From Chloroflexota bacterium (GTDB lineage: Bacteria > Chloroflexota > UBA11872 > VXOZ01): 64,000 nt of DNA. Positions 38,784 through 42,378 of this stretch are shown here, piece by piece. The DNA lies in NCBI GenBank assembly GCA_965221905.1, contig OZ244922.1, positions 3,382,956 to 3,446,955 on the forward strand, given 5' to 3'. Position 1 is the stretch's first letter. Every line of letters begins with the position of its first letter. Both the position numbers and the translations under genes were made by a program. The notes under the pieces were generated by a model. The model was not told the origin of the DNA and made no database searches. It was given only the letters and a program-made list of their open reading frames with translations.

Positions 38784-39239
38784 TTACAGAATGTGTAATC
38801 TGCGCATTGTCCACTTACAAATTGAGTGCCAGACGTATTTCCACAATACCGGTGATGTTGCGTCTTTCACTATGCAAGTGCCCAGGCCAATGACTCCGCC
38901 AAATTCCTCTGCCTTCTTGTAGCGGTCCTGGATTCGTATTCTTGTGATCCGCTCTTCAGACATGGCTGGTGCCCACTCAACCTTATTGCGTTTGATCCAG
39001 TAGTGGGATCGACACGCAATGCTCCAGTTACCAATTGACGGCTGAAGAGAAACGGACTTGCCGTCGAAGGTCATTTGCCAGTCAGTAGGGTCTAGGGGCG
39101 TGACTACTTCGATCCCGCAACCGCAACAACACTTGTGGACTACTGTTGCGAAAGGAATTGACACGTACAGTACACCCTCGACTAGGTCTTCAGGGATGAA
39201 ATGAACGAACTCGTGGAAGAGAGAGTTGATTCGAGTCAC
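38784..39239 (-). CDS. Cys-cluster protein of unknown function (HKCCCGCG), third gene of the Ubl-E2/E1 operon
   Basis: 151 aa; GTG start overlaps the stop of the upstream gene (GTGA); Cys/His candidates VVHKCCCGCG...SIACRSHYW...WHSIC; no HxH JAB motif, no HNH motif; low GC. Confidence 0.55.
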   Translation of the reverse strand: MTRINSLFHEFVHFIPEDLVEGVLYVSIPFATVVHKCCCGCGIEVVTPLDPTDWQMTFDGKSVSLQPSIGNWSIACRSHYWIKRNKVEWAPAMSEERITRIRIQDRYKKAEEFGGVIGLGTCIVKDATSPVLWKYVWHSICKWTMRRLHIL

Positions 39240-40408
39240 GTTTGGTTCTCGTTGATCAGACTGTTACCATCTATCTCGTAATAGCAAGAGTGCTCACTCT
39301 CTAGGTCTGTATAGAATCCCATGAGCTTTTTCCACTTGATCACAGCCAAAGCTGCATTCAAAGCGTTGAGATCGGCAATCTGAATGTTGCGTAAGTATTC
39401 ATTCTCGCCATTTTCATCTGAGAACGGTATGGTCGAGTGAATGTGGCTGCGTTCGTCAACTGTACTTGTTGTAACTCTCAACACGCCAAGCAGTGAACCG
39501 TCTACTTCGTTCACCCCCATCCCTGCATCTATGAATGGCACGCCGAACTCACACAGCTTCTCAACCACGAGTCTCCTGCTAAATCCCCTATCGACCGCTA
39601 GAAAGACAAAATCCATATTGCGAAGCCTATCAATTGTCGATTCTTCAAGGAAGTCATGGGCGAAAATGCGGTTCCGCATCTGAGAATAAACGTTGCAAAA
39701 GTACTCGGCTTTCTGTGGCGCCTTTACCAGGGTCTCCAAAGACGGCGCTCCGGGTGAGCGAAACGCGTTATGCTGCCCAAACCTGTCACCATCGAATAGA
39801 TGGATTTCTTTCACGGGCGTCTTAGCTACTAGGTCAAGAATGTATGAGCCAGTGCCCCCCAGTCCAACAATCGCTACTGCGCCGATGGCAAGTTTATCGG
39901 TCACAGCGACGATGCCAGATCGGCTCGACGCCGTATCAATATACTTAAACACCGAGTCGTCACCTTGAGGCTCGACAATCGAGAAGGTTTGGATCTTCAA
40001 GTTAGGATTGATGGATAGAGCGGGCCCAGAAACGATATGCGCGTAGGTGGTCATCTTCTCGTAATAGTCGTGGTACCCTTCACTTGGCTTGCTTGAAAAC
40101 GTATGGTCAATCACTAGACCACTAGCTAGCTCCCTGCGGGTGCTGGAGTTATGGATCTGCGTTAGTGGACGTCCCTCTTGGTCGCAAGGCATCTCTCCGG
40201 CGAACATCACAACATGAGTACTCGGTCTTGCTGTGACATTGCCTGCTAACGACAATTCTGCAACCAAAGTGCCTCGGGAAATGTTGCGCTCGCTCGTGAC
40301 GTAAGGGATGCCTCTTAATAGAAGATGGCCGGATCGGATCTCAACTTCGTGCCCTTCGCCTTGAAGCCGACTGAGGTCCGGGCTAAGACTTATCAGTGAT
40401 TGTGACAT
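39236..40408 (-). CDS. E2-like N-terminal domain fused to E1-like ThiF/MoeB adenylyltransferase domain (Cap2/BubCD-like architecture)
   Basis: C-terminal half has ThiF motifs VAIVGLGGTGSYILDLVAKTPVKEIHLFDGDRFGQHNAFR (GxGxxG nucleotide loop, D-x-D...N-x-x-R); N-terminal about 170 aa has a single Cys in HVVMFAGEMPCDQEG, compatible with a UBC-like catalytic centre; overlaps the upstream Ubl gene by 26 nt. Confidence 0.65.
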   Translation of the reverse strand: MSQSLISLSPDLSRLQGEGHEVEIRSGHLLLRGIPYVTSERNISRGTLVAELSLAGNVTARPSTHVVMFAGEMPCDQEGRPLTQIHNSSTRRELASGLVIDHTFSSKPSEGYHDYYEKMTTYAHIVSGPALSINPNLKIQTFSIVEPQGDDSVFKYIDTASSRSGIVAVTDKLAIGAVAIVGLGGTGSYILDLVAKTPVKEIHLFDGDRFGQHNAFRSPGAPSLETLVKAPQKAEYFCNVYSQMRNRIFAHDFLEESTIDRLRNMDFVFLAVDRGFSRRLVVEKLCEFGVPFIDAGMGVNEVDGSLLGVLRVTTSTVDERSHIHSTIPFSDENGENEYLRNIQIADLNALNAALAVIKWKKLMGFYTDLESEHSCYYEIDGNSLINENQT

Positions 40409-40637
40409 TAAAGATTGTTCCTTTCTGAATCTTTACCTTTTGGTCAGGAAAGAGCCGCCCATTTGGTGGTCTACCCGCGCCGTCGCGATAGGTGACAGTT
40501 ATCTCGATATACGGACCCGATGGCACTGGATCGTAGGCGAGTAAGACGACGACGTCGAAAGATATTTCATCAGAATTGACTACCTTCTTGCGGCCGTTCA
40601 CGATAATCTGTACTTTTTCCTTTTCGTCAATCATCAT
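40383..40637 (-). CDS. small beta-grasp (ubiquitin-like / multiubiquitin-type) protein, no C-terminal Gly
   Basis: 84 aa, no Cys, alternating beta-strand-like segments (KVQIIVNGRKKVV, FDVVVLLAY, YIEITVTY, KVKIQKGTIFNVTI); AAGGAG RBS 6-7 nt upstream; ends ...TITDKS. Confidence 0.5.
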   Translation of the reverse strand: MMIDEKEKVQIIVNGRKKVVNSDEISFDVVVLLAYDPVPSGPYIEITVTYRDGAGRPPNGRLFPDQKVKIQKGTIFNVTITDKS

Positions 40638-40645
40638 TAGACTCC

Positions 40646-40754
40646 TTGCAATGTTGCAAAAACAATTATCAGTACCATATGTGGTACACTTTCAATCTAC
40701 ACTGTGCGTACTGCCCGTGTCAACCCAAAATGGTACTTGTACCGTTTTAAGTAC
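40646..40754. promoter_or_regulatory. divergent promoter/operator region with GTAC-core palindromes
   Basis: TTGCAATGTTGCAA (40646-40659); perfect 16-bp palindrome GTACCATATGTGGTAC (40672-40687); AAAATGGTACTTGTACCGTTTT (40727-40748, one mismatch); lies between the divergent Ubl operon and the XRE gene. Confidence 0.55.
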
Positions 40755-40764
40755 AGGAGGTTTT

Positions 40765-41235
40765 ATGGCTGCAGGTAAGATAGAGCTTGGTGACCTAGGC
40801 CGTCTTGTCGCGGCTGAGCGGGATCGACGCGGCCTAAGTCTTCGCGAAGCGGCAAGTGCGATTGGAATTCCCTTCAACACCCTGGCGCGAGTGGAAAAGG
40901 GACACGTGCCTGACCTTCCAAAGTTCAAGAGGCTCGTGGAGTGGTGTGGTGCCGATATAAACCAGTTCTTTGAATGGCAGGAGAAAGCTGCGTCGACAAC
41001 AGACATTATCGCTGAACACCTTCGATCTGATCCAAGTCTGCCTGCTGCCGCTGCTGACCAAATCTCAAGAATCGTTAACGAACTCTATCAAGCTCTAGCA
41101 GTTCCGCAAGAGTTTTCTGCAGCGCATCTACGGGCAGCAACCACTTTCAAGCCAGAAGCGGCGCGCGCGCTCGGGACACTCTTACAGGACTTGAATGAAG
41201 CGCTTCTGAAGGAAACTGAACATGGCTCTGCGTAG
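40765..41235 (+). CDS. XRE-family helix-turn-helix transcriptional regulator (CapH-like)
   Basis: AGGAGG RBS 7 nt upstream of the ATG; HTH LSLREAASAIGIPFNTLARVEKGH; 156 aa with C-terminal helical domain. Confidence 0.75.
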   Translation: MAAGKIELGDLGRLVAAERDRRGLSLREAASAIGIPFNTLARVEKGHVPDLPKFKRLVEWCGADINQFFEWQEKAASTTDIIAEHLRSDPSLPAAAADQISRIVNELYQALAVPQEFSAAHLRAATTFKPEAARALGTLLQDLNEALLKETEHGSA

Positions 41236-41776
41236 AGGGTTTAAGTCTGAGGCGGAGAGAATTGCGGAGGGCATCCGAAGAGAACTCGGACTGAGTTCCG
41301 CTGAATCGGTTTCGCCCGATGCAATTGCCGAACTTCAGGGTGTACAAATCGTGGCAGGCGACGAATTGATCCCCCGTCAACGATTTGTTGAGCTTGAAAA
41401 TATACAAACAGGAGCCTTTTCAGCATGCACATTACGACCTTCTCCCGATCGCGTTGTCATTGTGTTCAACCCTCTATCAGCCGAGTCCCGCCGCAAAAGC
41501 GATCTAGCCCATGAACTTGCACACCTACTCCTCAACCACAAGTTGAGTCGGATTGAGAGGCTCGGTGAGATTTCCTTTCTAACATGCGATTCGGTTCAAG
41601 AGGCGGAGGCTTCCTGGCTATCAGGCTGCTTACTGCTACCTCGAGCGTTGCTATTGTCGGAGGTCCGCAGGGGTTTGAGTTCTGTTGAAATTGCCGAGAA
41701 ATGTGGTGTGAGTGAACAGATGGTGCGTTACAGAACTAATGTTACTGGTGTGCTAAGGCAGAGCCAGGCCCGCTGA
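41222..41776 (+). CDS. ImmA/IrrE family zinc metallopeptidase (CapP-like)
   Basis: HEXXH motif in DLAHELAHLLLNH typical of DUF955/ImmA; overlaps the XRE gene by 14 nt. Confidence 0.75.
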   Translation: MALRRGFKSEAERIAEGIRRELGLSSAESVSPDAIAELQGVQIVAGDELIPRQRFVELENIQTGAFSACTLRPSPDRVVIVFNPLSAESRRKSDLAHELAHLLLNHKLSRIERLGEISFLTCDSVQEAEASWLSGCLLLPRALLLSEVRRGLSSVEIAEKCGVSEQMVRYRTNVTGVLRQSQAR

Positions 41777-42168
41777 AAGTTGAGGCGCGCCACGGTTTAA
41801 TGTAAGTGGCTTCGGCTAAAGCATGCGTTGTACCGTGAAAGTCAACGACTATTCTTGATCCTAGATTCTGGTTGGCTGGTCAATAAAGGGGGAGCTAATT
41901 CCTATGACAGGCTTCTGTGTACGCCGCCAGGGTGGGTTCGGCGATGCGGAGCCATGAGAAGCCGCGGGCGAAGCGTAGGGCGTCGCCGTAAGCCCACCTA
42001 TGGATTAGATGGTCACGTTACCCCATTCTTGAAATCGCATCCCGCGCTCCGTTATAGTGAAGTATGGAAGAAAACGTGATCTTCCTCAAATACATTTTCT
42101 CAATTGCGTGCCAAGCGCCGGTCATAGCAGCTTGTCCGAGTAACACGTAGCGGACAGGGTTAGTATTT

Positions 42169-42329
42169 GGTGACTAGCACATGCTGTTTCAGTGAATCGA
42201 TATTTTCGTGAAACAGCGCCTGTGTGAAACAGCATCTGCGTTTCAGCGAGATAGCATCTTCGTTTCAAGGAAACGGCGACTTTGTTTCAGGGAAACAGCA
42301 TCTTCGTGAAACGGCATCTGCTAGTCACT
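42169..42329. repeat. array of 4 consecutive GUUUC/GAAAC-stem hairpins flanked by 10-bp inverted repeat GTGACTAGCA / TGCTAGTCAC, in the pnp 5' region
   Basis: nine GTTTC/GAAAC pentamers in 140 bp, arranged as GCTGTTTCA..TGAAACAGC, TGAAAC..GTTTCA, CGTTTC AAG GAAACG, TGTTTC AGGG AAACA. Confidence 0.6.
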
Positions 42330-42378
42330 AACCACACGGCGGGCCGGGTGTGGGGCACGGGAAGGATTTTTCCGTCGT

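Follow-up and report, generated by a model that had tools for sequence, protein, structure and literature searches.

The third gene of a Chloroflexota Type II Bub operon encodes a BubE (DUF6527) family protein, a likely Ser-His deconjugating protease with a Cys4 zinc site

The small cysteine-rich protein encoded by the third gene of an E2/E1 gene cluster from a Chloroflexota bacterium, located within the 64,000-nucleotide stretch of contig OZ244922.1 that was analysed here (the window), is a typical member of the BubE (DUF6527) family and not a new kind of effector, and the locus in which it lies is a canonical Type II Bub operon that fits the published description gene for gene. With good though not full confidence, we assign this BubE protein a role as a Ser-His deconjugating protease with a Cys4 zinc site. 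Both the protein and the type of operon are already known: the protein is identified by name in a routine scan against Pfam, whilst a study from 2024 covers the family.

The operons concerned, previously listed as "6E/DUF6527", were renamed Bub by Ye, Gong, Chambers and Corbett (10.1101/2024.11.21.623953) and in a companion paper (10.1101/2024.11.21.623966). A Type II Bub operon (formerly the 6E.2 or DUF6527 operon) comprises the ubiquitin-like protein (Ubl) BubA, the E2-E1 fusion protein BubBD and BubE, and is devoid of a JAB peptidase (10.1101/2024.11.21.623953). In the window, genes for a Multi_ubiq protein, a DUF6791 plus ThiF protein and a DUF6527 protein follow each other in this order on the same strand, their reading frames overlap and no JAB match was obtained, and a divergent gene pair lies next to them:

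38784 to 39239, minus strand: bubE, a 151-residue DUF6527/BubE protein (open reading frame call, Pfam PF20137, homologues)
39236 to 40408, minus strand: bubBD, 390 residues, with an E2-like DUF6791 domain (residues 10-159) and an E1 adenylation domain of ThiF type from about residue 170 (Pfam)
40383 to 40637, minus strand: bubA, 84 residues (83 from the second Met), a single β-grasp ubiquitin-like domain that ends in TDKS
40672 to 40743: divergent promoter region between capH and bubA, with two GTAC-type palindromes
40765 to 41235, plus strand: capH-like gene for an XRE-type HTH repressor (Pfam HTH_31, HTH_3), divergent from bubA
41222 to 41776, plus strand: capP-like gene for an M78/IrrE-type metallopeptidase (HExxH; Peptidase_M78, E 1.1e-17), overlapping the end of capH

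The bubE open reading frame begins with a GTG codon in the frame listing. On the minus strand bubBD ends with AAC CAA ACG TGA and bubE starts with GTG ACT CGA ATC, so that the four nucleotides GTGA are common to the TGA stop and the GTG start; the coupling to the E2/E1 gene that had been claimed in the preliminary description is hence real in the raw sequence, and a 4-nt start/stop overlap (ATGA, GTGA or TTGA) is also present in most related loci. The N-terminus of the window protein aligns to its homologues from residue 1 onwards, and deep conservation rules out that the frame is not a real gene.

The family assignment is unambiguous. Window BubE matches Pfam PF20137 (DUF6527, now named BubE) with an E-value of 8.5e-26 and a score of 90.1 bits (cut-off 23.6), the match spans profile positions 2-63 of 63, and it is the sole Pfam match of the protein. 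A public contig with identical proteins carries the precomputed label "PF20137:BubE", and a search gave 1056 homologues, of which every one among the matches listed carries PF20137. The statement in the preliminary description that no family could be assigned was therefore wrong, and its proposal of a candidate novel effector is unsupported, since the characterisation of the family from 2024 describes a protease with a Ser-His dyad, by which targets are freed from the Ubl of the operon. Two further points of that description proved correct: bubE sits at the place where related operons carry a peptidase, and neither a JAB nor an HNH family was matched in window BubE by Pfam at E ≤ 0.1. Other readings of the protein were rejected as well. 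Membership of the RING, U-box, zinc-ribbon or HNH groups is countered by DUF6527 being the sole Pfam match and by the lack of a PDB sequence match (nothing at E ≤ 1) or a significant fold match; the same lack of a profile or fold match applies to a JAB reading, and membership of the JAB/JAMM group (Cap3, BilC) is further opposed by the conserved histidines H35 and H79, which are not in an HxH arrangement. As Pfam detected no JAB domain in BubA, BubBD or BubE, BubE is the sole candidate peptidase of the three Bub proteins. The PADLOC (2023) and NCBIfam collections hold no model for BubE or BubA, and the scans with them gave no BubE match; the literature search returned nothing on DUF6791 and no further functional study of BubE from 2025 on.

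The conservation of the positions that carry the proposed function was assessed in an alignment of 153 sequences, comprising window BubE, the BubE protein of Citrobacter and 151 representatives of 50%-identity clusters drawn from a search of 1.84 billion proteins. The positions are encoded as follows:

39117 to 39131, minus strand: codons of the CxCxC motif, C37, C39 and C41, three of the four proposed zinc ligands with the variable C38 between them (codon coordinates verified)
39036 to 39038, minus strand: codon of Ser68, the proposed nucleophile, within the motif L-x-P-S-I-G-N-W
39003 to 39014, minus strand: codons of C76 to H79 (CRSH), with C76 as the fourth zinc ligand and H79 as the proposed general base

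C37, C39, C41 and C76 are kept in 152, 149, 150 and 152 of the 153 sequences, respectively, and H79 in 152. C38, the middle residue of the "CCC" run, is variable (cysteine in 75/153), C122 was found in window BubE alone, and position 141 is mostly Arg or Lys. The three motifs quoted in the preliminary description are all present in the window protein (HKCCCGCG, residues 35-42; CRSHYW, residues 76-81; HSIC, residues 138-141), but they do not form one cluster: HKCCCGCG and CRSHYW are conserved far beyond chance, whilst HSIC is unconserved and lies outside the cluster in the variable tail. Ser68, kept in 151 of the 153 sequences, had been overlooked there. The four conserved cysteines align with C57, C59, C61 and C99 of Citrobacter BubE, and S68 and H79 with S92 and H102; these Citrobacter references, like those of E. 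coli used below, were machine-read from the PDF of Table S2 (10.1101/2024.11.21.623953), which entails a numbering offset of about two residues and makes identity values approximate. The cysteines of window BubE most likely form a zinc site: the earlier idea of a small zinc-binding domain, deduced from the cysteines, is in keeping with the match of C37, C39, C41 and C76 to the published C4 site. By analogy with the published work on the family, the role of the Cys4 zinc would be structural and Ser68 and H79 would form the protease dyad. Taken as a whole, the initial interpretation of a zinc-binding partner in the peptidase slot stands, whereas the novelty attached to it falls away, because the BubE family had already been described.

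In the published account, BubE is a compact eight-stranded β-sandwich with a Cys4 zinc site, no structural relatives, an invariant Ser-His dyad and, at the N- or the C-terminus, a hydrophobic extension that does not form a membrane helix (10.1101/2024.11.21.623953). An AlphaFold2 model of window BubE, built on 93 sequences and with a mean pLDDT of 81.8, divides the protein into two parts:

38970 to 39239, minus strand: conserved BubE core, residues 1-90, with eight predicted β-strands, holding the zinc site and the Ser-His dyad
38787 to 38969, minus strand: variable C-terminal extension, residues 91-151, predicted to be helical and containing the unconserved "HSIC"

The predicted strands (residues 8-12, 23-27, 32-36, 44-48, 55-58, 63-69, 80-83 and 86-89) equal in number those of the DUF6527 fold schematic of Ye et al. 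(10.1101/2024.11.21.623953), a comparison that concerns the strand count. Block-mean pLDDT in the core is 85-98, with a drop to 67 for residues 71-80, which lie between Ser68 and His79. Foldseek gave no match in the PDB at E ≤ 0.001 (best E 0.43, TM 0.17, which is chance level), and the lack of PDB fold relatives agrees with the published study (10.1101/2024.11.21.623953). Helices are predicted at residues 95-113, 115-126 and 130-149 of the tail with lower pLDDT. Hydrophobic residues make up 46% of this tail of 61 residues, which is basic and rich in Trp and has an amphipathic end, with a helical hydrophobic moment of up to 0.56 (residues 132-146), yet the hydrophobicity of every 19-residue segment is too low for a membrane span. 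Its sequence is unconserved in the alignments of BubE homologues. Thus, the hydrophobic, non-transmembrane terminal extension that is a trait of the family is also present in window BubE, at the C-terminus.

The partner proteins show the features expected of the published system. BubBD matches NCBIfam NF004805 with 556 bits, shares 42% identity with BubBD from E. coli ZDHYS365, and its E1 half matches the Citrobacter BubCD structures 9eav and 9ea4. S105, K107 and R217 of the window protein align with S106, K108 and the adenylation Arg of E. coli BubBD (R219 in 10.1101/2024.11.21.623953, the machine-read sequence being offset by about 2), and Y338 occupies the crossover-loop position. The residues S105, K107, R217 and Y338 are kept in 73, 70, 75 and 75 of 75 BubBD orthologues; the machine-read E. 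coli sequence has Val in the column of Tyr338, which we take to be a reading error, and the Tyr call is based on the 75/75 orthologues. A separate observation concerns Cys75 of the E2-like domain (codon 40184-40186, minus strand), which is part of an (M/H)-P-C motif and is kept in 71/75 orthologues; the family has been described as having no conserved catalytic cysteine. E. coli BubBD also carries this cysteine (EHPCH), in a motif that is reminiscent of HPN in E2 enzymes.

BubA matches Pfam Multi_ubiq (E 6.6e-13), and its residues 5-84 match residues 143-222 of PDB entry 9cd2, the multi-ubiquitin protein of ZDHYS365, with E 6e-7 and with TDKS included. The C-terminus of Type II BubA reads T-[DN]-[KR]-S before the stop codon (40383-40391 in the window, minus strand) in all 75 loci out of 75, as does that of BubA from E. 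coli ZDHYS365. The C-terminal residue is thus a Ser, where ubiquitin and Type I BubA have a Gly; Ye et al. mention in their main text a conserved C-terminal BubA residue, its identity as Ser not being discussed there (10.1101/2024.11.21.623953). Since a Ser ends all 75 BubA proteins, this conserved Ser would be the residue that is adenylated. The reading frames of bubA and bubBD overlap by 26 nt (40383-40408, minus strand), and of the loci in which both ends could be located, nearly all retain this overlap. The sequence TTCAATGTCACAATCACTGATAAGTCTTAG is dual-coding, for FNVTITDKS and the stop of BubA as well as for MSQSLISL of BubBD, and this conserved junction is unusually long.

Upstream and divergent from bubA, the capH-like gene is annotated with a length of 156 aa in the ENA contig that is identical, whilst the best defence-system match of the capP-like gene is PADLOC capP (E 1.6e-10). 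Both genes together are found beside 31% of Bub operons (10.1101/2024.11.21.623953). The intergenic region contains the palindromes GTACCAtatgTGGTAC at 40672-40687 and GGTACttGTACC at 40732-40743, with a TTGACA -35 element for bubA between them, and all 11 relatives with a close CapH have GTACC-N6-GGTAC at the corresponding position. On the basis of these patterns, the palindromes are likely candidates for CapH operators.

The context of BubE was examined in the best 80 loci, one genome per species, each of which was searched for the five proteins of the window; these loci span Chloroflexota, Acidobacteriota, Planctomycetota, Cyanobacteria, Proteobacteria, Bacteroidota and others. A BubBD match lies directly upstream of BubE in all 80, full-length in 75 and cut or partial in 5, with two or three of the latter cut by a contig end, and BubA stands in front in 75/80. 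A CapP-type match adjoins the cassette in 22/80 loci, 20 of which also have a CapH-type match. Homologues outside E1/E2 contexts, the wide occurrence of which, with a known unrelated function, would have refuted the proposal of the preliminary description, were hence not found among the 80 loci, and the constant presence of BubBD confirms a functional link, but one with an already known system. Amongst these loci, one (L060, 5882-6342) has BubE beside a BubBD remnant of 40 residues and thus represents a decayed cassette. A metagenomic protein of 543 aa (P0227) combines DUF6791, ThiF and DUF6527 in one polypeptide, which represents a BubBD-BubE fusion or, alternatively, the result of a frameshift at the 4-nt overlap; the other family representatives listed are nearly all stand-alone proteins of about 110-200 aa.

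In the window itself, the cassette is flanked by purC and pnp, and the genome is GC-rich. The GC content is about 0.45-0.55 over positions of about 38800-42300, a range that covers the five genes and a 600-nt spacer after capP, as compared to about 0.60-0.67 for the flanking purB/purC and pnp/dapB genes, which suggests that the cassette was acquired horizontally between housekeeping genes. No tRNA was found within about 12 kb of the cassette and no Rfam family in 34-46 kb of the window, so that the boundaries of the cassette are defined by the drop in GC alone. Phage origin is unsupported, with 3 relatives among 2.9 million viral contigs. The stretch of about 600 nt between capP and pnp (41777-42378) has low GC and no convincing open reading frame, the sole one encoding 83 aa from a TTG start; a promoter-like site lies at 42029-42058. 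This stretch could be a pnp leader or a remnant of an inserted element.

The mechanism that we propose is drawn from the characterised family and mapped to the window sequence, from which we infer that window BubE has the same activity. BubBD would adenylate the C-terminus of the 84-aa BubA by means of Arg217 and the ThiF-type site, would then hold BubA as oxyesters on Tyr338 of the E1 crossover loop and on Ser105 of the E2-like domain, and would finally join BubA to lysines of target proteins. [quoted passage not shown] BubE would thereby be the isopeptidase of the operon and a brake on the Bub pathway. Given that BubA ends at the conserved Ser without any extension, there is no precursor to process, and this favours a deconjugating role. 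The amphipathic C-terminal tail may put BubE at the membrane surface, a location suggested for the BubE tail by Ye et al. (10.1101/2024.11.21.623953), and repression of the cassette by CapH and CapP probably lasts until DNA is damaged or an infection sets in. The sole BubE protein to have been tested biochemically is that of Citrobacter sp. RHBSTW-00271, which belongs to a Type I operon; it is a weak, Ser-His-dependent and zinc-stimulated peptidase, and cleavage in vitro took 48 h (10.1101/2024.11.21.623953). As the only assay thus concerns one Type I orthologue and such slow cleavage, proteolysis may not be the physiological activity. Further points against this reading are that Ye et al. could not solve a structure of BubE and that none of the Bub operons conferred protection against phage (10.1101/2024.11.21.623953), as well as the drop in pLDDT between Ser68 and His79.

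It is this slow cleavage that gives room to the main rival in our ranking, in which BubE catalyses transfer in the manner of an E3 or a sortase: BubA would be loaded on Ser68, forming a third oxyester, and this transacylase would then hand it over to a specific acceptor that may lie at the membrane, with the hydrolysis seen in vitro being a slow side reaction. Oxyesters of Ser and Tyr already serve as intermediates of the Bub pathway (10.1101/2024.11.21.623953), and the acyl-enzyme of a Ser-His pair is chemically the same kind of intermediate; moreover, the targets and the phenotype of Bub were not known in that study, and the amphipathic tail could place BubE near a membrane acceptor. However, BubA-target conjugates form without BubE and are cleared in cells by wild-type BubE but not by its S92A or H102A variants, and Type II BubBD alone affords BubA-BubA conjugates in vitro (10.1101/2024.11.21.623953). 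Since a BubA~Ser68 acyl intermediate is expected for hydrolase and transacylase alike, the present data fit either, and the window sequence contains no feature that distinguishes between them; on balance we regard transfer as improbable, with an outside chance of being right. Its most specific form, in which BubE is a membrane-peripheral Ser-His transacylase that acts as the third-step enzyme of an all-oxyester Ubl cascade, on an acceptor that is possibly non-protein or membrane-associated, appears marginally less probable again.

Two further explanations are, in our estimate, both very improbable. In one, BubE is a toxic effector of small zinc-finger type: upon its release or activation by the Ubl system, its hydrophobic tail would harm the membrane. 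The last position in a putative defence operon under CapH/CapP-type control and the composition of the tail (46% hydrophobic, Trp-rich, basic and amphipathic) would suit such a role, as would the aggregation-prone nature of BubE (10.1101/2024.11.21.623953). In the other, BubE is a catalytically silent zinc-finger adaptor, that is, a recognition or scaffolding subunit for BubA or BubBD, to which the small Cys4 domain without PDB fold relatives, the tight coupling to BubBD and the occasional fusion with it lend some colour. Strict conservation disfavours both, as it falls on the catalytic and zinc residues and not on the tail: a zinc site and a Ser-His pair point to an enzyme, and a Ser68 and His79 that are near-invariant across about 150 diverged clusters are hard to explain without catalysis. 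Against toxicity there is also the lack of a predicted transmembrane segment, together with the finding that BubE was co-expressed in E. coli with loss of conjugates and with no mention of toxicity, whilst the loss of activity both in vitro and in cells upon mutation of the equivalent residues opposes a silent adaptor (10.1101/2024.11.21.623953). The deconjugating protease consequently remains our preferred reading.

The value of this locus as a discovery is small, as the 2024 study already explains the cysteine cluster (Cys4 zinc) as well as the Ser-His pair (dyad). It is, however, a clean and minimal Type II Bub cassette, with a single-domain Ubl of 84 aa, BubBD, BubE and CapH/CapP in about 3 kb, and with its recognisable candidate operator it could be convenient for experiments.

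Amongst the characterised systems, that of E. coli ZDHYS365 is also a Type II operon of BubA, BubBD and BubE. Its BubE (WP_074146335.1) shares about 39% identity with window BubE (an approximate value from the machine-read reference), likewise has its DUF6527 core at the N-terminus and an extension at the C-terminus, and carries the motifs CxCGC, LxPSIGNW and CRSHYW; the two tails are unrelated in sequence. E. coli BubA consists of three β-grasp domains (222 aa) as compared to one (84 aa) in the window, and the window cassette lies between purC and pnp and not in a tRNA-linked island, unlike the E. coli case. The Citrobacter protein resembles window BubE in its aligned Cys4 and Ser-His residues, its short β-rich core and its motifs L-x-P-S and C-R-S-H-[YF]-W, with about 40% identity over aligned columns. 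It differs in that its hydrophobic extension is N-terminal and that of window BubE C-terminal, in having one residue fewer between the Ser and the fourth Cys, and at the position of H35, a residue that all the close Type II relatives examined share, where Citrobacter BubE has Phe. Furthermore, a JAB peptidase fused in BubCD processes the BubAB precursor in the Citrobacter operon, whereas the window operon has neither. The JAB/JAMM enzymes Cap3 (Type II CBASS) and BilC (Bil) are like BubE in being proposed peptidases that are encoded with E1/E2 proteins, reverse conjugation and share a similar operon position and translational coupling. JAB enzymes, in contrast, depend on a catalytic zinc, whilst BubE is proposed to be a Ser-His hydrolase with a structural zinc and has an unrelated fold: the likeness of Cap3 and BilC to BubE is thus one of functional analogy alone and not of family membership.
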